Positions 7,535 to 55,723 of a stretch of DNA of 64,000 bases are shown piece by piece (within the stretch, counting starts at the first letter, position 1; every line of letters starts with the position of its first letter). The translations under genes were made by a program, and so were the position numbers. The notes below the pieces were generated by a model. That model was not told the DNA's origin, searched no databases, and saw only the letters and a list, made by a program, of their open reading frames with translations. The stretch is taken from positions 1,554-65,553 of the forward strand of contig JBKPCO010000035.1 of assembly GCA_046727415.1 (NCBI GenBank), in the 5' to 3' direction. Source of the DNA: Candidatus Methylomirabilota bacterium (lineage in GTDB: Bacteria > Methylomirabilota > Methylomirabilia > Rokubacteriales > CSP1-6).

Positions 7535-9127
7535 GTGTTCGACCTCAAGATCGAGGGCGCACAGGTCATCGACGGCACCGGGCGGCCCGGAGCCCGGGCG
7601 GACGTGGGCATCAAGGACGACCGCATCGCGGCGGTCGGCGACCTTCACCGCGAGGCCGCGGGCAGCAACCTGCACGCGTCGGGCAAGGTCGTGGCGCCCG
7701 GGTTCATCGACATGCACTCGCACTCGGACTGGCGACTCTGGGAAAATCGCCGTGCGGAATCGAAGGTGAGGCAGGGCGTGACCACCGAGGTGGTCGGCAA
7801 CTGCGGATTCTCGCCGGCGCCGGTGTCCGACGAGTTCCTCGACGATCTGCGCGGGTTCGCACTCCACGTGCCAGCGGGCATGGACTTTCGCTGGCGTTCC
7901 GTCGGCGACTACCTCCGGGCGTTCGATTCGAGCGGCACGGCGCTCAACGTGATCCAGCTCATTGGTCACGGCACGCTGCGCGTGGCGGTCATGGGCTTCG
8001 CGCGGCGCCAGCCGACACCGGCTGAGCTTCGGCGCATGCAGAAGCTGCTCGCCGATGGGATCGAGGACGGTGCGTGGGGCCTCTCCACCGGGCTGATCTA
8101 CCCGCCGGGCTCATTTGCCACGACCGACGAGATCGTGGAGCTCGCCGCCGTCGCGGGTCGGCATCGCGGCTTCTACGCGAGCCACATCCGGGGGGAGGGG
8201 GCAACCCTGCTGGACGCCGTTCAGGAGGCGATCCACGTGGGCCGGGAGGGCGACCTGCCGGTGCAGATCAGTCATGTTAAGGCGGCCGGACGGCCGAACT
8301 GGGGTAAGGTGGCCGATGTGCTCGCGCTCGTCGATGCCGCGCGGGACGAGGGACTCGACGTTATGGCCGACGTCTACCCGTACACTGCGTCCAGTACCAT
8401 GTTACGGGCGCTCCTGCCGGACTGGGCGCTCGAGGGCGGGATTGATGCCATGCTCGGACGCCTCGCCGATCCCGACGCCCGCGCGCGCATCCGCCGCGAC
8501 ATCGAGTCGCCGCCGACTGGCCAGAGCCTCGTCGACCGCATCGGGTGGGAGAACGTCATGATCGCGTCCGCCGTCAAGCGCCGCGACGCCGAGGGAAAGC
8601 GCCTATCCGAGATCGCGGCCGCCGGCGGTGTGGACGCGGTCGACGCCGCGCTGGAGCTGCTCGAGGCCGAGGGCGGAAAGGGCTCGATGATCCTCTTTCA
8701 GCTCGACGAGCGCGATCTCAGGCGGGCGCTCGTGCACGAGGCCGTCATGATCGGCTCCGACGGTTCGGCGCTCGCGCCCGGCGGCCTGGCCGGGGGCAAG
8801 CCGCATCCGCGGAGCTACGGCACCTTTCCGCGTGTCCTCGGGGAATACGCGCGCGAGGAGCGCGTGCTGACGCTGGCCCAGGCGGTTCACAAGATGACGG
8901 GTCTTCCGGCGCGCCGTCTCGGGCTCAAGGATCGGGGCGTCATCGCGGTCGGCGCGCGGGCCGACCTCGTGGTGTTCGATGCGCGCCGGGTCGGCGACCG
9001 CGCCACTTACCAGGAGCCCCACCAGTACCCGTCGGGGATCGAGCACGTCCTCGTCAACGGCAGCTTCGTTATCAAGGACGGCCAGCACACCGGGAGCCTT
9101 CCCGGGAGACTCCTGACACCGGCATGA
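7535..9127 (+). CDS. N-acyl-D-amino-acid deacylase (D-aminoacylase) family amidohydrolase
   Basis: 530 aa. 'VAPGFIDMHSHSD' HxH metal motif and the overall D-aminoacylase layout. GTG 7535 lies 3 nt after the amidase stop. Confidence 0.85.
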   Translation: MFDLKIEGAQVIDGTGRPGARADVGIKDDRIAAVGDLHREAAGSNLHASGKVVAPGFIDMHSHSDWRLWENRRAESKVRQGVTTEVVGNCGFSPAPVSDEFLDDLRGFALHVPAGMDFRWRSVGDYLRAFDSSGTALNVIQLIGHGTLRVAVMGFARRQPTPAELRRMQKLLADGIEDGAWGLSTGLIYPPGSFATTDEIVELAAVAGRHRGFYASHIRGEGATLLDAVQEAIHVGREGDLPVQISHVKAAGRPNWGKVADVLALVDAARDEGLDVMADVYPYTASSTMLRALLPDWALEGGIDAMLGRLADPDARARIRRDIESPPTGQSLVDRIGWENVMIASAVKRRDAEGKRLSEIAAAGGVDAVDAALELLEAEGGKGSMILFQLDERDLRRALVHEAVMIGSDGSALAPGGLAGGKPHPRSYGTFPRVLGEYAREERVLTLAQAVHKMTGLPARRLGLKDRGVIAVGARADLVVFDARRVGDRATYQEPHQYPSGIEHVLVNGSFVIKDGQHTGSLPGRLLTPA

Positions 9128-11660
9128 AGAGCGGCCTGGCGTCGCGTGATCTGCTGGCGCCGATCTCCGCGGCCTCGTCGGTGACGGATGGGCTCCGCGA
9201 GTCCCTGCGCCGGCTGGTGGCCGTCACCGGCTCGACCGCCGGCGTCGTCACTCTCCCATTACAAGATGAGGCGCCGATCGTCGTCGCGCGCGGCAGCAGC
9301 ACATCCCTTCCACTCCGGCGATGGCTGACCGACGTCACGGCCGTGCCCGCGCGCGGGACGCGGCTCACCCGTGTCGTGCCGCCGGGCTCCCCCCGGAGCC
9401 GCCCGGCGGCTCTCTTGAGGGCTCCACTCGATGCGCGCGGCCGGCGAGTCGGCGAGCTGGCCCTCCTGGGCACGGTCGGGCGCCTGACGGCGTCGGTCTT
9501 GCCGGCGAGCTTTCCCCGCGAGCTCGGGGCGGCCATCGATCGTCGGTGCGATCTCGAGCGCCTCGCCCTCCGCGCGGAAGTCGTCAACGAGCTCACGACC
9601 CTGCTGTCGTCGCCACACACGCTCGACGAGGTGTTCGCCACCTTCGCCGGGGGCATTGCGCGCCTCGTGCGATTCGACTCGATCAGCATCGCGCTGCTCG
9701 ACACCGAGCGCGGCACGTTCGAGAGCTTCGACCTGGCGGCCGGCGCGCTTCGCGGATCTCCGGCCCCAGGAACCTCGACGCCACTCGAGGGCACCGTCCT
9801 GGAGCGCGTGGTGGCCACCGGCGTCCCCGTGCGCATCGACGATCTCGAGCGCGACGAGGCGCCGGAAGTGAGCCGGCGCGTTTTCCTCGAGCGCGGCTAC
9901 CGCGCCGTGACGTTCGTGCCCCTATCGTCGGGCACCGTGTTCGGCGCCGTCGCGCTCGCCACCACCCGGCCCGGCGCGCTGGGGGATGGCGACCTCGAGG
10001 TGGTCGCCGAGCTCGCGCGCCCGCTGGCCCTCGGGATCGAGCGGTGGCGCCTCGCCGAGGAGAGCAGCCGGCGGGCGCGAGAAACTCACGCGCTCCTCGA
10101 GGCAGGCCGGGCGGTCACCGCCAGCCTCGACGTGAACCGGACGATCCGGGTCCTGCTGGAAGAGGCACGCGGCGTCCTCGGCGTCGACTCGTGCGGACTG
10201 ATGACGATCGATCCCGCGACGGGCGAGCTCGTGATGGCCGCGAGCCTCGACGTACCGGCCGCCCTGTGGCCGACGATCCGGCTGCAGCAGGGCCAGGGGG
10301 TCACGGGTCTCGCGGTGCAGCAGCGACGTCCCATGCAGAGCCCCGACCTGTCGGTCGACGCCCGCGCGATGTATCCCCACGTGGCCAGCGGCAGCGGCTA
10401 TCGCTCGATGCTCGTGGCGCCTTTGCTCCGGGGCGACCACGCGATCGGTGCGATCACCGTCTTGCGGCACGGCGTCCACGAGTTCTCGGCGCATGAGGAG
10501 GAGCTCCTGGTGGCGCTGGCGAGCCAGGCGGCGATTGCGCTGGAGCACGCCCGCCTCTACACCGAGCTGGAGGGGATGGTCGCCGACCGGACCCAGGAGC
10601 TCGACGCCCAGAAGCGGTTCGTCGAGGTGGTGCTGGAGACGATGCCGATCGGCGTCCTCGTGCTCGACGGTCAGCTCAACGTGGTCAGGATCAACCCGGC
10701 CGGTGCCCGCGCCCTGGCTTGCGCCTCCGACGCTCACGGTCCGCTCGCCCAGTTCCTGCCCCACGACAAGGGCGCGGCGGTGCTGGAGTTCCTCGGGGCG
10801 GCCTTCAACAGCCGGCGCGGCGGCTCGGTCGAGGAGGAAATGATCATCGCCGGGGACTCCAGGATCTTCCGGTTCACCGTGGCACCCGTCGCGCCGTCAA
10901 GCGATCCGGGCGCCTATGCGGTCACCCTGGTGGAGGACATCACGCACGCGAAGGGGCTCGAGCGCCAGATGCTCCTCACCGAGCGGCTCACGACGGCCGG
11001 CCGGCTTGCCGCCGGGGTCGCCCACGAGTTGAACAATCCGCTCGCGACGATCGCCGGGTGCGCCGAGTCGCTGCAGGGGCAGCTGGCGTCGGTCGATCAG
11101 CGGGCGATGACGGAGTACGCCGACTTTCGTCGTTACCTCGGCCTGATCGAGGAGGAGGCGTACCGCTGCAAGGAGATCACCGGGAGCTTGCTCCAGTTCG
11201 TGCGTGACCCGGGCAGCCGGCGGGAGCCCACCGACCTGAATGCGGTCGTGCTCAAGACGGCCGAGCTCCTGACGCGCCAGTCACGCTTCGCCGCCAGCCA
11301 TGTGGCGATCGACCTCGACCCCGCGCTGCCGCCGGTCGCGGTGAACGAGGGCCAGCTGCGGCAGGTGTGCCTCGGGCTCGCGTCCAACGCGCTGGAGGCG
11401 ATGGAGGGACGGGGTGCCTTGACGATCCGTTCGCGGGTGGGCCACGGCACGGTCGAGATCGAGCTCGAGGACGAGGGCCCCGGGATCCCCGAGGAGAACC
11501 TCGCCCGCATCTTCCATCCGTTCTTCACGACCAAGCCGCCTGGACAGGGCACCGGCCTCGGACTCGCGATCGCGCAGGGCATCGTGACCGATCACGGCGG
11601 TAGGATCGAGGTCGCCTCGGTGGTCGGCAGGGGCAGCACCTTCCGCGTGGTGCTCCCGCT

Positions 11661-11664
<4 letters not shown>
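9124..11664 (+). CDS. Soluble multi-GAF/PAS sensor histidine kinase
   Basis: No TM segment seen. About three GAF-like regions, a PAS region, H-box '[11 protein letters not shown]' and HATPase G-box 'GTGLGLAIA'. ATG 9124 overlaps the TGA of the aminoacylase gene (ATGA). The ORF-track start 8545 is an out-of-context extension. Confidence 0.85.
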
Positions 11665-13019
<1,355 letters not shown>

Positions 13020-51031: not shown

Positions 51032-52090
51032 CTAGAGCGCGGAGACGCGGTTGCGACCCTGGTCCTTGGCGTCGCGCAGGGCGCGCTGCGCCGCCGCCAG
51101 CAGGTCGTCGGCCGACACGGCGTCGGCGGGCAGCCCGGCCACGCCGAAGCTCGCAGTGACCGTGCCGTACGCGAAGGGATGACTCTCGATGACGGACCGG
51201 ATCCGCTGGGCGTAGGTGGCGGCGCCGGCCTTGGGGGTGTTGGCGAGCAGGGCGGCGAACTCGTCGCCGTCCAGGCGGGCGATGATCGTGAAGCTCCGAG
51301 AGTGCCGGAGGAGGAGGCGCGATACCTCCCGGAGCACCTCGTCGCCGGCCGCCTGACCGTGCTCGGCGGTGATCGGCTTGAAGCAATCCACGTTCACGAC
51401 CACGAGCGAGAGCGGATGCCCGAACCGGGTATGGCGCTTGACCTCCTCGTCGATCCGCAGGCCGAAGTACCGGCGGTTGTAGAGCTCGGTCAGGCTGTCC
51501 TTGAACGAGATGTTCTCGAGCCGGGCGTTGCGGATGGCGACCGCCGCGTGGGCGGCGAGGGCCCGGATGAGCTTCTCGTGATCCCGGTGGAAGGCGACGG
51601 TGGCACCCGAGTCGTCGACCGCATTCAGGAGCTCGAGCACCCCGATGATGCTACCGGTCAGATCTTGCAGGGGGACGGCGAGCACCGAGCGCGTGGCGTA
51701 GTCGCTGGCGACGTCGAACCGCTCGTTGAAGGCGCGGGTCTGATGCACGCCGATTGCGTGCGCGTCGGCGACGTTGACCACCTCGCCGGTCTTCGCCACG
51801 TGGCCGGCGAGACTTGGCTCGCTGAGCCGCAGGGGCTCGGCCTCGAATCGCTGCTGCAGCCCGGGCCGGGCCAGCTTCCGCTCGATGAGGTCGTTCTGCA
51901 CCACCGCGAACCGGAGCCGGTCGCCATCGCGGAGAAAGAGCGTCCCGGCCTCGGCGCGCGTGAATCGCCGCGCCGCCTCGAGGATGCGGTCGAGCAGGGC
52001 GTAGAGATCGCGCTCGCTGGCGACGGCGAGCCCGATCTCGAGGAGCTCGTCGAGCACTTGCTCGCGGTCGGCGGCGGTGTGGGAGCTCAC
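51032..52090 (-). CDS. GAF-domain protein with degenerate GGDEF domain (DGDEF)
   Basis: GAF N-terminus. The GGDEF-fold C-terminus reads 'RLDGDEF' (nt 51257-51271), and 'FKPITAEHG' replaces the usual 'FKxxND..G'. Confidence 0.85.
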   Translation of the reverse strand: MSSHTAADREQVLDELLEIGLAVASERDLYALLDRILEAARRFTRAEAGTLFLRDGDRLRFAVVQNDLIERKLARPGLQQRFEAEPLRLSEPSLAGHVAKTGEVVNVADAHAIGVHQTRAFNERFDVASDYATRSVLAVPLQDLTGSIIGVLELLNAVDDSGATVAFHRDHEKLIRALAAHAAVAIRNARLENISFKDSLTELYNRRYFGLRIDEEVKRHTRFGHPLSLVVVNVDCFKPITAEHGQAAGDEVLREVSRLLLRHSRSFTIIARLDGDEFAALLANTPKAGAATYAQRIRSVIESHPFAYGTVTASFGVAGLPADAVSADDLLAAAQRALRDAKDQGRNRVSAL

Positions 52091-53121
52091 GGCGCGGCCG
52101 CCCGGTTCGGGCCCAGACGCTTGGCTTCGTAGAGGGCCCGATCGGCGGCGACGATGAGGTCATCGACGGTTGTCGCGTCTTCCGGCAGGCTCGCGATCCC
52201 CAGAGTGGCGGTGACCGGGTGTGCGGACCGGTTTTGCTCGATGACGCCCCGGATGCGCTCCGCGTACGTGAGGCCGCCGGCCTTGGTCGTGTTTACCAGG
52301 ATGATCGCGAACTCGTCGCCGCCGTACCGGGTCACAATGCTGAAGCTCCGCGAATGCTTGACCAGGAGCTGGGCCACCTCGCGCAGCACTTCGTCCCCGG
52401 CACGGTGGCCGAACCGGTCGTTCACCTCCTTGAAGTGATCCAGGTCCATCAGCGCCAGCGAGAGCGGCTCGCCGAAGCGGCAGTGGCGCTTGAACTCCTC
52501 CTCCATGCGGATCGTGAAGTAGCGACGGTTGTAGACGTCGGTCAACGCGTCCTTGAAGGAGAGGTCCTCGAGCCGGGCGTTGCGGAGTGCGACGGCAGCC
52601 TGGGAGGCGAGCGACCGCACCAGCGATTCGTATTGCGAGTCGAACGGCACGACGCGGCCGCGGTCGAGCGCGTTGATCAGTTCGAGCACGCCGAGGATAT
52701 TGTGCGAGGGATCCTGGAGCGGGACCACCAGGATCGACTGCGTGCGATAGCTGAGGCGCGCGTCGATACGCTGATCGAAGGCATACGGCCGGTCCGGCGG
52801 GATCATGTACGTATCGTGCAGGTTGAGGATATCGCCGGTGAGCGCGACGTGGCCGGCGAGGCTCAGCTCACGCAGATGCAGGGGCTCGGCCTTGAGACGG
52901 CGACGCATCTCCTCCTCGCCCAGCTCCTTGGCGAGCCGGTCGTTCTGCACGACGGAGAAGCGCAGCAGGTCACCCTCGCGGAGGAACAGCGTGCCGGCCT
53001 CGGCCCGTGTGAAGCGGCGCGCTTCGGTCAGGATGCGCTCGAGCAACGTGCCCAGGTCCTGCTCGCTGGTCAACGTGATCCCGATCTGTACCAGCTCCCG
53101 GAACGCCTGGGTCAGGTTCAA
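52087..53121 (-). CDS. GAF-domain diguanylate cyclase (canonical GGDEF)
   Basis: GAF N-terminus, 'DLDHFKEVNDRFGH' and 'RYGGDEF' (nt 52309-52323). TTG 53121 lies 10 nt after AGGAGG. 4-nt overlap with the downstream paralogue. Confidence 0.9.
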   Translation of the reverse strand: MNLTQAFRELVQIGITLTSEQDLGTLLERILTEARRFTRAEAGTLFLREGDLLRFSVVQNDRLAKELGEEEMRRRLKAEPLHLRELSLAGHVALTGDILNLHDTYMIPPDRPYAFDQRIDARLSYRTQSILVVPLQDPSHNILGVLELINALDRGRVVPFDSQYESLVRSLASQAAVALRNARLEDLSFKDALTDVYNRRYFTIRMEEEFKRHCRFGEPLSLALMDLDHFKEVNDRFGHRAGDEVLREVAQLLVKHSRSFSIVTRYGGDEFAIILVNTTKAGGLTYAERIRGVIEQNRSAHPVTATLGIASLPEDATTVDDLIVAADRALYEAKRLGPNRAAAP

Positions 53122-53172: not shown

Positions 53173-53188
53173 AGCAATCCCAGTGCCA
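53173..53188 (-). promoter_or_regulatory. Consensus sigma-54 -24/-12 promoter (minus strand) for the GAF-GGDEF operon
   Basis: The minus strand reads TGGCACtgggaTTGCT, a full match to TGGCAC-N5-TTGCW. It lies ~50 nt upstream of TTG 53121. Confidence 0.7.
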
Positions 53189-53229: not shown

Positions 53230-53460
53230 TTAGCCAGATAGGCTCATTCCTAACACACGAAAGCGGCCTTCCGGTCACTCTCTGAGCATGGAAATTCTTA
53301 CCAATGGCCAATCGTTTGCCGGTCTGACAGCTGGGTCCGGTGACCGCATGGCCAGCGGTAGGTTCCTGGCGTGTCAGAGTGCGCATCAGCGGGTCGAGAG
53401 GCTCGGCGCACTTTCCCGCAACACTCCGGATTCGTTACTGGAAGGCGATCTCCGCGCCGC

Positions 53461-53476
53461 TGGCACATCAGTTGCA
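53461..53476 (+). promoter_or_regulatory. Consensus sigma-54 -24/-12 promoter (plus strand) for the 590-aa protein gene
   Basis: TGGCACatcagTTGCA, a full match with exact spacing. It ends 26 nt upstream of ATG 53502. Confidence 0.7.
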
Positions 53477-53501
53477 TAAGGCCGCGTCGGGACAGGCTTG
53501 C

Positions 53502-55274
53502 ATGAAACTGACTTTCAAGCGGCGCGACGTCAAGGATCTTCAGCAGCTCGCCACGCTGGTCGCGGAGAACGTCGACGCGATCGAAACCGGGCTCAAGATC
53601 ATTGGGTCGAATCTGAATCTCGGTCGGGCCAGCATCGAGCTCGTCGCGCTCGACGCCGCGGACACGCCGGTGCTGGTCACGCTGGGCCTCACCGCCGACG
53701 ACACGATGCTCCTGAGGGCGCTCGAGGCCTATGCCTGGTGCCTCGACTATCCAGAGTCGCTGCAGAAGCTCGTCCCCGCCTCGAGACGGCCGGAGTGGCC
53801 ACCGCGAGTCGTCTTCGTCGCCGAGCGGCTCCTCGAGTCGTTCCTGAGGAAGATGCGGTTGCTCAAGTTCTCCACGGTCGACTTCTTCGAGTTCCGCTAC
53901 GTCGAGGCCAACGGCACCACGGGTTTCTACCTCGACCGGGCCGACTGGGATCCAAACAGCGCCGGCTCACTGGACGACGAGCGAGCGGACGAGCGACCGG
54001 AACGCCCTGAGCGCGTCGAGCGCCCGGCTCCTCGGCTTGGCCCGCCCACCCGTCATGTCGAGCCGGTCCATGTCGAGCCGGTCGCCGAGCAGGAGCCGGA
54101 GGAACTGGAAGCACAGGAGGAACCCGAAGAGGAGCGCGAGGTCGTCGTGCACGAAGAGCCAGTGGCTGTCGAGGAGCCGACGATCGTCATGCTCCACGAG
54201 CCCAAGCCTGCGCCCCGAGTGGCACCGCCGCCTCGACTGGAAACCGCACCGCGACCGGCACCCCGTGTGGAACCTGCGCCCAGGGTGGAGCCTCCGCGCA
54301 CAGTGCAGCCGCCGCCTCCGCCGCCCCGAGTGGATCCCAGCAAGGTCGCCGCGCCGGCGCCCAGGGTTGTCTCACCGGTAGCGTCCAACACCGGCCGCGA
54401 ACCAGCGGACGGCCACGTGGTCCTCAAGGGTTTGCGCGTGCCGACCGAGACGCCGCGAGGCCAGCACCCGCGCGACCTTCCGAACGTTCCGGTGAAGGAA
54501 GCGCCGCCAAAGCCCCAGCGCGAGAGCGTCGCACCGGCGGCCTCTACCAGGTCCGCACGCGTCGGGACGAGCACTCCGAGCACGATCGATCCACGTATTC
54601 CGCGTATTCCGGCGAAGGGCGCTCCAGTCGGGAACGGATCGAGGAACGACACCCCAAAGATCGACACCCCGAGGATCGACACGCCGAAGATCGACGTGCC
54701 GAAGCCTGAAGCTCCCAAGAGCGACCTCGCTCCGACCTGGAGAAAGTTCCTCGACAGGCTGACCGGCACGTTCGACGCGCGGCCGGCGACGCCGGCTCCG
54801 GAGCCGTTCGCCACCGATCTCCACCTCCAGCCCGACGAGGTGGCTCCCGACGAGGTCATCGACGAATCCCAGGATTCGATGACCGAGCTGTCGGAGCAGC
54901 AGCAGAGCGCCCTGAAGGGTCTCACACTCCCGGACAACGGCGAGCTCGCGCCCCAGTGGCGCCAGTTCCTCGACCATCCGACGCTCGACGAGGCGAAGAT
55001 CGCGGTCGTCCGGGGATACCTGCAGCGCGAGTTCCCGCTGTGCACCGTCTACGACTTCCACGATTTCCAGCGCAACGCGCAGGTGTTCCAGCTCCAGGAC
55101 AACCACGGCAAGGTCACGCAGCTCATCACGATGACCGCGGAGTTCTTCGACTCGCATCGCGACCTGGAGATCCGCGCGTGGATCGAGAAGCACAAGGTCG
55201 CGCATGCGGCGCGGCAGGCAGGTCAGGCCGGCGTGCTCGTCTCGCAGGCCGGTCTCCAGATCGAAAAGAGCTAG
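53502..55274 (+). CDS. Hypothetical 590-aa protein: NucS/DUF91-like N-domain (degenerate), long Pro-rich repeat region, unknown C-domain
   Basis: ATG 53502 chosen because the sigma-54 element lies inside the ORF-track extension (53340..). The N-terminal ~150 aa follow the NucS C-domain pattern ('VAENVDAIETGLKIIGSNL..IELVALDAADTPVLVTLG'). The middle ~330 aa are P/E/R/V-rich. Confidence 0.75.
   Translation: MKLTFKRRDVKDLQQLATLVAENVDAIETGLKIIGSNLNLGRASIELVALDAADTPVLVTLGLTADDTMLLRALEAYAWCLDYPESLQKLVPASRRPEWPPRVVFVAERLLESFLRKMRLLKFSTVDFFEFRYVEANGTTGFYLDRADWDPNSAGSLDDERADERPERPERVERPAPRLGPPTRHVEPVHVEPVAEQEPEELEAQEEPEEEREVVVHEEPVAVEEPTIVMLHEPKPAPRVAPPPRLETAPRPAPRVEPAPRVEPPRTVQPPPPPPRVDPSKVAAPAPRVVSPVASNTGREPADGHVVLKGLRVPTETPRGQHPRDLPNVPVKEAPPKPQRESVAPAASTRSARVGTSTPSTIDPRIPRIPAKGAPVGNGSRNDTPKIDTPRIDTPKIDVPKPEAPKSDLAPTWRKFLDRLTGTFDARPATPAPEPFATDLHLQPDEVAPDEVIDESQDSMTELSEQQQSALKGLTLPDNGELAPQWRQFLDHPTLDEAKIAVVRGYLQREFPLCTVYDFHDFQRNAQVFQLQDNHGKVTQLITMTAEFFDSHRDLEIRAWIEKHKVAHAARQAGQAGVLVSQAGLQIEKS
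54054..54083 (+). repeat. Exact in-frame tandem 15-mer (CATGTCGAGCCGGTC x2)
   Basis: Read directly from the sequence. Encodes HVEPV-HVEPV. Confidence 0.9.
54648..54707 (+). repeat. In-frame tandem 15-nt repeats (3 good units plus 1 degenerate)
   Basis: GACACCCCAAAGATC / GACACCCCGAGGATC / GACACGCCGAAGATC / GACGTGCCGAAGCCT, encoding DTPKI-DTPRI-DTPKI-DVPKP. Confidence 0.85.
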
Positions 55275-55723
55275 CCCGCTCGCTCCGAGTCGTCCCAGCG
55301 CCAGGACATCGCCCGGTCGGGCGAGATGCGAATGACGGTCGCGGTCGCCCGGTCCAACCCCATGACGCGATACTGCGCGTACTTGTCGCGGAGGAGGTCG
55401 ATGGCCCCAACGCGCTCGGGGCCGTCGGGGAGCACGTCGGCGCGCCCCTGGACGATCACCCAGGCCAGCCGCGTCCATTCCTCGTCGTAGCGGTCGACGA
55501 GCAGCGAGACGCGCGAATTCTCGGCGATGTTCCGAACGCGCCGGAGGCCACCCGCCGGGATCCGCTTGGGCTTGGCGTCGATTGCCGAAAAGCACGAGCG
55601 ACCGTCAAAGACGTAGCACACCGGGACGACGAGAGGCTGACCCGTCCGGTCCGCCGTGCCGAGCCGCGCGACCCGACCCTCGCGCAAGAGCTCGGCGGCG
55701 AACGCCGGAAGATCGAGGCTCAC
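55271..55723 (-). CDS. PPOX-class F420-dependent enzyme (Rv0121/TIGR03668-like)
   Basis: 'RVARLGT...PLVVPVCYVF', 'AIDAKPK', 'LRRVRNI' and 'VSLLVDRYDEEW' follow the pattern of that family. Confidence 0.8.
   Translation of the reverse strand: MSLDLPAFAAELLREGRVARLGTADRTGQPLVVPVCYVFDGRSCFSAIDAKPKRIPAGGLRRVRNIAENSRVSLLVDRYDEEWTRLAWVIVQGRADVLPDGPERVGAIDLLRDKYAQYRVMGLDRATATVIRISPDRAMSWRWDDSERAG

Follow-up and report, generated by a model that had tools for sequence, protein, structure and literature searches.

The window analysed here, a stretch of 64,000 nucleotides (nt) from a Candidatus Methylomirabilota bacterium, carries at positions 53502–55274 of the forward strand a gene encoding a protein of 590 amino acids (aa). 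The description that fits it best is that of a tethered-peptide protein in which an inactivated PD-(D/E)XK domain has been put to new use as a module. It comprises a nuclease-like N-terminal domain (N-domain), a low-complexity linker, two copies of a short peptide that we named the WRKFL motif, and a globular C-terminal domain (C-domain). The elements of the gene and of its product are the following, types A and B being the two architectures found in the family.

53461–53476, + strand: predicted sigma-54 (−24/−12) promoter, TGGCACATCAGTTGCA, an exact consensus match located 26 nt 5′ of the ATG
53489–53496, + strand: Shine-Dalgarno-like sequence, GGGACAGG, read from the sequence; the aligned relatives have a conserved GGGGA(T) block at the equivalent place
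53502–55274, + strand: coding sequence, 590 aa and stop codon (list of open reading frames [ORFs], translation, intact ORFs of relatives, G+C content at third codon positions [GC3] of 0.83)
53502–53951, + strand: N-domain, residues 1–150, with a predicted NucS/RecB-like PD-(D/E)XK fold without E-x-K (AlphaFold2 model, Foldseek, residue census)
53952–54722, + strand: low-complexity linker, residues 151–407, about 260 aa (conservation, composition, repeats)
54723–54773, + strand: WRKFL motif copy 1, DLAPTWRKFLDRLTGTF, conserved in almost every type B relative and predicted to form an amphipathic helix
54774–54920, + strand: acidic spacer, moderately conserved, QPFAAD...EVAPDEV.DE (alignment, composition)
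54921–54974, + strand: WRKFL motif copy 2, LTLPDNGELAPQWRQFLD, homologous to the extreme C-terminal peptide of type A proteins, FPNDGVLTRQWMEFLNQM
54975–55271, + strand: C-domain, a predicted globular alpha/beta domain of about 100 aa, alpha-beta3-alpha3-beta2, specific to type B (AlphaFold2 model)

The reading frame proposed in the initial annotation is borne out by its translation and by its relatives. An intact ORF of 314–627 aa is present in 27 of the 31 related loci. As GC3 is high throughout the frame (0.68–0.94 along the whole length, mean 0.83, with similar values in the neighboring genes), the coding status of the 53502–55274 region is supported. A longer gene starting at a GTG codon at position 53340 is possible on paper. 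We discarded this start and retained position 53502 because the MKLTF(K/R)R N-terminus begins at the equivalent position in all relatives and because the sigma-54 promoter would fall inside the extension. We also considered that the ORF might be an artefact, either a long ORF arising by chance in DNA of 68% GC or a misassembly joining two genes, as the database entries for the family are mostly fragments and two ORFs are called in some metagenome-assembled genomes (MAGs). However, these split calls correspond to frameshifts within the repetitive linker that preserve the total length, and the single intact ORFs come from independent MAGs, have both ends conserved and show a high GC3 throughout. 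This explanation is therefore refuted for practical purposes.

The conservation profile established over 28 full-length relatives confirms a three-part architecture, as anticipated from the sequence of this protein alone. Identity reaches 0.5–0.9 over residues 1–150, drops to 0.1–0.35 with many gaps and indels over residues 151–405, and rises again to 0.7–0.9 over residues 408–424 and 471–590. The 590-aa sequence contains neither a signal peptide nor a transmembrane segment. Apart from a sub-threshold match to NucS, searches of the whole protein and of each of its ends against the Pfam, NCBIfam, and PADLOC profiles returned no usable match, and the family as a whole matches no Pfam or NCBIfam entry. 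Similarly, no real match was obtained among the PDB sequences, whether the query was the single protein or the family profile. These searches place the protein in no characterized family, in line with the unknown function and the unrecognized domain combination initially reported. We found no paper on this protein family, and a literature search on Rokubacteria, sigma-54, and cyclic di-GMP (c-di-GMP) returned nothing relevant. A second member was also looked for within the 64-kb window and none was found.

The AlphaFold2 model of the N-domain, built with 48 homologs, has a predicted local distance difference test score (pLDDT) of 83.7 and a predicted template modeling score of 0.82. When this model was compared with the PDB by Foldseek, the best matches were the EndoMS/NucS structures 5gke and 2vld (E values of 2e-5 to 8e-5, probability 1.0), followed by SfsA, the Shedu protein SduA, Card1, and FokI. 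The nuclease-like nature of this domain, first suspected from a sequence pattern, is thus borne out, and we conclude that the N-domain is predicted to adopt a PD-(D/E)XK fold nearest to that of NucS/EndoMS. Sequence profiles do not reveal this relationship. The NucS profile NF003270 of NCBIfam aligns with residues 15–62 only, with an E value of 0.11 and a score of 11.6 bits versus a cutoff of 216, and Pfam NucS_C does not match the protein. The PD-(D/E)XK fold is therefore seen in a protein that no characterized family covers.

The initial annotation had noted that the catalytic D...E-x-K positions of NucS read E...T-L-G in this protein. A profile alignment with NucS, which is weak and which we used as a lead only, indeed places E46 opposite the catalytic Asp and T60-L-G62 opposite the E-x-K. 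More convincing evidence comes from a residue census of 138 family representatives. At position 46, 122 of the 138 carry D and nine carry E, so that an acidic residue is present in 131. Conversely, A, T, or V occupies position 60, where E is found in only two representatives, leaving 136 without this Glu, and the residue at position 62, G, D, or A, is never K (0/138). On the basis of this census, the whole family is devoid of the canonical Glu-x-Lys catalytic pair, which supports the probable loss of nuclease activity proposed at the outset. The RecB-type QxxxY motif is reduced to AxxxY77 in the window protein, and the Tyr is kept in 127 of the 138 representatives. Several Arg and Lys residues are also retained, and the family has a conserved signature of its own: xLG(L/F)TAD(D/E), R/K72, E/D75-A-Y-x-W-C, Y-P, PPR, ER, and RK.

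Relatives of the protein are numerous. Word-indexed searches returned about 70 relatives of the N-domain and about 36 of the C-domain, all at least 47% identical and mostly fragments. An exhaustive hidden Markov model (HMM) search of metagenomes identified 454 clusters at 50% identity with E values up to 1e-3, 134 of these with E values up to 1e-30, and the N-domain occupies residues 1–150 in nearly all of the members found in this way. A genome scan, performed with patterns derived from type B, yielded 30 loci in Candidatus Rokubacteria/Methylomirabilota MAGs; the members with a named source all belong to uncultured Rokubacteria MAGs. Among the 137 best new representatives of the HMM search, two architectures are distinguishable. 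Type A is the commoner (66/137). It has a long A/P/V/E-rich linker, with a median length of about 314 aa and a maximum of about 707 aa, and ends in a single, nearly invariant peptide, (E)GL(Q/K)FPNDGVLTRQWMEFLNQMAAxK (FPNDGVLTRQWMEFLNQM). A Pfam search of four type A members detected no domain. Type B, the architecture of the window protein, accounts for 19 of the 137 representatives; in these proteins the peptide is duplicated and a domain of about 100 aa is added. The remaining 52 are fragments or other forms. We take the form with a single terminal peptide as ancestral.

The public entries for this family are mostly fragments of 150–280 aa labeled "hypothetical protein." The full architecture has been hidden because the repetitive linker breaks both assemblies and gene calls. 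In locus L001, the gene (8001–9808) was called as two ORFs of 260 and 341 aa that jointly rebuild the full gene. Likewise, in L001, L009, and L032–L036, frameshifts in the GC-rich repetitive linker break the gene, which was called as two or three short ORFs; the contig names suggest that these loci come from long-read assemblies. In short-read data, whose assemblies the linker breaks, the gene is usually truncated. We also observed that L001, of type B, and L033, of type A, share the ENA record ERZ25039555; both paralogs may therefore be present in one genome.

The linker is rich in P (22%), E (12%), V (11%), and R (11%), with A also enriched, and its length differs among relatives, whose whole proteins range from 314 to 627 aa. 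All the peptide repeats reported in the initial annotation are present, three of them corresponding to short DNA tandem repeats (53976–54001, 54054–54083, and 54647–54704). Two semi-conserved motifs are embedded in the linker: IVMLHEPKPAPR at residues 227–238 (54180–54215), found as (R/K)IVMLHE(P/T)KPAPR in many relatives, and VVLKGLRVP at residues 305–313 (54414–54440), found as V(V/L)LKGLR(V/P)P in many relatives. The IVMLHE and V(V/L)LKGLR motifs may be additional docking motifs.

Downstream of the N-domain, the most conserved element is an amphipathic W-x-x-F-L helix. The sequence AP(T/Q)WR(K/Q)FLD occurs twice, at 54729–54755 and 54948–54974, exactly as first described, and both copies are kept in nearly all full-length relatives. 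The sequence comparison shows the type A terminal peptide and the WRKFL motifs of this protein to be homologous. The WxxFL peptides have hydrophobic moments of 0.37–0.52. Copy 1 has the value of 0.52 and is modeled as a helix, at low confidence, by AlphaFold2, and copy 2 forms a short helix directly before the C-domain in the model. Residues 408–470 carry a net charge of −10.

The globular C-terminus noted earlier corresponds to a confidently modeled domain of about 100 aa, with a pLDDT of 80 in the first block of ten residues and of 84–95 in the remainder. Foldseek returned no significant fold match for this model, the best E values being 0.03 in the PDB and 0.004 in BFVD. SfsA and TSEN subunits are among the weaker fold matches of the N-domain and C-domain models, respectively. 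We did not use the matches of the C-domain to TSEN15/34, Acb4, dsRBD, and unnamed phage proteins, as their template modeling scores were low. That the C-domain might be a second degenerate copy of the N-domain was rejected by hhalign (probability of 0.3%). No stand-alone homolog of the C-domain was found in type A clusters, and this domain occurs only inside type B genes.

Comparison with NucS/EndoMS raises the possibility that these proteins are DNA-transaction factors derived from NucS, which would recognize or cleave DNA via a rearranged active site and bind the sliding clamp through their C-terminal peptide. NucS/EndoMS provides the nearest structures, and the family keeps the first catalytic Asp/Glu, the Tyr of the QxxxY helix, and further conserved acidic and basic residues. 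NucS/EndoMS proteins have a clamp-binding motif, QL(S/D)LF, at their extreme C-terminus. At the same place, after a flexible linker, the type A proteins have ...RQWMEFLNQM..., in which a Q is followed by a hydrophobic residue and which resembles this motif only loosely. However, QWMEF differs from QL(S/D)LF at position 4, and copy 1 of type B has T instead of the Q. Moreover, the catalytic Lys is missing in all 138 representatives and the Glu in 136 of them, and the neighborhood is one of signaling rather than of replication or repair. In contrast to NucS, whose N-terminal DNA-binding and dimerization domain is missing here, the nuclease-like fold of the family starts at residue 1 and is followed by a disordered linker of 250–700 aa and by extra C-terminal elements. 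We consider a role in DNA transactions improbable. Although the fold is shared, this uncurated family is new and lies outside NucS by its HMM score, its catalytic motif, and its two-domain architecture.

The amphipathic character of the WxxFL peptide would also suit a membrane-targeting sequence, which would make the protein a membrane- or pole-associated landmark by tethering it, along with anything bound to its N-domain, to the inner membrane through a long spacer. The type A peptide, terminal and preceded by a long disordered linker, has the layout of the membrane-targeting sequences of FtsA and MinD. However, the T-R-Q-W-M-E-F-L-N-Q sequence is nearly invariant, a far stricter conservation than membrane-targeting helices require. 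Few basic residues flank the peptide and, in type B, the motif is internal, with copy 2 abutting a folded domain. Such a landmark role seems to us as doubtful as a function in DNA transactions.

The gene is predicted to be sigma-54 dependent, with a −24/−12 element suitably spaced from the ATG. We searched the window for exact matches to the consensus TGGCAC-N5-TTGCW and compared their number with that in 100 shuffles of the window. Two matches were found, both in the same intergenic region, versus none in the 100 shuffles. The first is the promoter at 53461–53476, which agrees with the initial annotation of a sigma-54-driven gene and is conserved in the relatives: GG-N10-GC is kept upstream of the gene in type B and type A loci, the N5 spacer being variable, and the element reads TGGTAC-N5-TTTGCT in type A relatives. 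The second lies 290 nt away on the opposite strand and faces a gene encoding a GAF-GGDEF protein. The intergenic region and the genes on its other side contain the following elements.

53290–53376, no strand assigned: conserved intergenic blocks between the two promoters, with inverted repeats (phylogenetic footprint over 17 loci)
53173–53188, − strand: second, divergent predicted sigma-54 promoter, TGGCACTGGGATTGCT, an exact consensus match facing the GAF-GGDEF gene 52087–53121
52087–53121 and 51032–52090, − strand: two tandem GAF-GGDEF genes (Pfam), conserved divergent neighbors of the gene

In 17 aligned loci, the second promoter is conserved as AGCAA-N5/6-(G/A)TGCCA with a variable spacer. 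Between the promoters, block 1 is an A/T-rich near-palindrome, TTGACAAAT.ATTTGTC in the relatives, and block 2 is an inverted pair, GTGAC...GTGTCA(C), with a spacing that shifts by about one helical turn from one subgroup to another. These blocks are candidate sites for an activator or for the integration host factor. The diguanylate cyclase genes and the gene studied here thus appear, from these alignments, to have divergent, paired sigma-54 promoters that share the conserved sites lying between them. A TGG(T/C)-N9-TTGC(T) element was also found upstream of each type A gene checked (three of the six loci: L029, L032, and L033), and the divergent members of L028 and L030 still carry a sigma-54-type upstream element, TGGCACGCCGGTTGCC and TGGCTCGAGACTTGCT, respectively.

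The gene neighborhood is conserved within each architecture. In 27 of the 31 related loci (L001–L027), which show type B synteny, two to three GAF-GGDEF genes are divergent from the gene, the upstream flank being missing in L003. On this side, the genes encode a Rieske protein, a Haem_oxygenase_2/TenA-like protein, and the two to three GAF-GGDEF proteins, all divergent from the gene; on the other side are convergent PNPOx-like and FmdA genes. In all six type A loci, a (GAF-)GGDEF gene is divergent and is followed by genes for a REC-sigma-54-AAA+-HTH activator, the family protein, a REC-HD-GYP protein, a REC protein, and two methyltransferases. Further along, a STAS gene is present in several loci and a HisKA_7TM-GAF kinase gene in two. 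Downstream of the gene in L032–L036, we noted two tandem class I S-adenosylmethionine-dependent methyltransferases, a stand-alone REC protein, often a STAS protein, a GNAT acetyltransferase, and a HisKA_7TM-GAF kinase. The type A clusters look like a larger conserved signaling island. The association with GAF-GGDEF genes and sigma-54 promoters envisaged for the homologs therefore holds, for type B in 27 of the 31 loci and for type A, through the sigma-54 activator, HD-GYP, and GGDEF genes, in six of six. Both architectures seem from their gene content to be tied to sigma-54 and to enzymes making or breaking c-di-GMP.

Several further observations concern these neighbors. The stop codons of the gene and of the convergent PNPOx-like gene (55271–55723, −) overlap in the palindrome GCTAGC (55270–55275), leaving no space for an intergenic terminator, and an identical 4-nt stop overlap is found in L001 (9805–9808). 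According to its translation, the first GAF-GGDEF protein (52087–53121) has an intact GGDEF motif and RSFS instead of the RxxD I-site. The second (51032–52090, −) reads RLDGDEFAALL, with DGDEF instead of GGDEF, and one of the tandem cyclases may be degenerate or regulatory. L028 (10001–11251) and L030 (10001–10945) harbor the most divergent type B-like members, with N-domains at about 47% identity and the C-domain present. Their contexts are unrelated: genes for OmpA-like and CusF-like proteins adjoin the L028 gene, and one for an acyl-CoA ligase adjoins that of L030. We found no indication of a role in anti-phage defense: PADLOC gave no match, housekeeping-type and signaling genes make up a vertically conserved context, and the catalytic residues are lost.

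The order of genes in type A loci suggests another explanation, a feedback loop in which the sigma-54-induced protein would bind the NtrC-type activator encoded upstream, with the WxxFL helix docking on it, and damp or gate its ATPase. A gene that has its own sigma-54 promoter and lies next to that of an activator is the classic layout of activator/anti-activator pairs, as in the Psp and Hrp systems. In six of six type A loci, the gene directly follows that of the REC-AAA+-HTH activator, and it has its own sigma-54-type promoter in the three loci checked. The same layout, a sigma-54 promoter gene beside an NtrC-type activator among c-di-GMP enzymes, recalls PspF-PspA, HrpS-HrpV, and FleQ-FleN, as well as the c-di-GMP-responsive bacterial enhancer-binding proteins (bEBPs) FleQ and VpsR. 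However, the type B loci, including that of the window, have no adjoining activator. The Pfam and NCBIfam searches revealed no similarity to PspA, HrpV, or FleN, nor is there homology to the other proteins of these systems or a recognized c-di-GMP-binding motif (PilZ or similar), and a dead nuclease domain would remain unexplained. An anti-activator function is therefore unlikely, if a little less so than the DNA and membrane roles considered above. The sole bEBP of the window is of the NtrC type and is encoded at 11661–13019, 41 kb from the gene. We considered it as the cognate activator and found this unsupported: it shares 44% identity with the bEBPs of the type A clusters, which share 69% identity with one another. 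An ORF for a GAF-GAF-PAS histidine kinase (1039 aa as listed; region 8545–13019, +) overlaps this bEBP gene by 4 nt.

The reading that we tentatively prefer, while holding it at somewhat less than even odds, is that the protein is a cytoplasmic, non-catalytic adaptor, a "tethered-peptide hub," in a sigma-54-controlled c-di-GMP module. The observations themselves cover the fold, its missing catalytic residues, the architecture of the protein, its promoter, and its gene neighborhood, and from these we infer the anchoring, the docking, and the identity of the partner. Transcription would start from the conserved predicted −24/−12 promoter. The dead nuclease domain would serve as an anchor, either by oligomerizing or by binding a nucleic acid or nucleotide ligand via its retained acidic and basic residues, and the linker of variable length would act as a flexible spacer. 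The WxxFL peptide, together with the C-domain in type B, would dock a co-encoded partner, for which the candidates are a REC domain, an HD-GYP or GGDEF enzyme, or the activator. As a result, c-di-GMP turnover might be localized or gated, or sigma-54 activation might be subject to feedback. The proposal in the initial annotation of a scaffold rather than an enzyme fits this anatomy.

Several points weigh against the adaptor proposal. PD-(D/E)XK enzymes can relocate catalytic residues, and a non-canonical active site could be built from the conserved D46, D66-(D/E)67, R/K72, and E/D75. With a net charge of −3, the N-domain is slightly acidic, which disfavors non-specific DNA binding. No cognate activator was found within the window, where the only bEBP is not orthologous to those of type A. 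The divergent members of L028, L030, and partly L029 lie in other gene contexts. Finally, the putative link to c-di-GMP stems solely from the gene neighborhood, and the partner, the ligand, and the binding are all postulated. No c-di-GMP receptor domain (PilZ, MshEN, or degenerate GGDEF/EAL) was detected by Pfam or NCBIfam in the window protein or by Pfam in type A members.

The proposed adaptor finds close parallels in proteins such as SSB, FtsZ, and CheZ, which combine a folded anchor, a variable low-complexity linker, and, at the terminus, a short amphipathic peptide under strict conservation. SSB consists of a DNA-binding fold, a disordered linker, and a C-terminal tip, and FtsZ of a globular domain, a linker, and a C-terminal peptide. 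The peptides of CheZ and FliM dock on REC domains, that of CheZ via its C-terminal helix, and REC proteins likewise flank the type A genes. These proteins have no sequence or fold relationship with the family, whose anchor is a dead nuclease fold and whose type B members carry the peptide twice, internally, together with an extra domain. Similarly, Sen15/Sen54 of the tRNA splicing endonuclease and SfsA keep a nuclease fold without the canonical catalytic residues, but there is no specific homology with them, and their partners and context are different.

A bolder version of the adaptor proposal, which we regard as speculative and rather unlikely, is that the dead NucS-like domain would have been repurposed to sense, or to provide an anchor for, a DNA site, c-di-GMP, or some other nucleotide, with the invariant WxxFL helix as a new short linear motif docking a REC, HD-GYP, or GGDEF protein. 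The protein would then couple c-di-GMP turnover to sigma-54 transcription as an unrecognized core component of the circuit.

As the members with a named source come from uncultured Rokubacteria, any testing of these proposals would need a heterologous host, which is the main limit of this work. The analysis delineates a short linear motif of bacteria whose conservation is strict, TRQW(M/L)EFLNQ in type A or AP(T/Q)WRKFL in type B, and exposes an annotation problem, with a whole family hidden as fragmentary hypothetical proteins. If the adaptor proposal is true, this unannotated family of about 450 clusters at 50% identity would join c-di-GMP signaling and would offer a clean case of a nuclease fold that has given up catalysis to anchor a tethered peptide.

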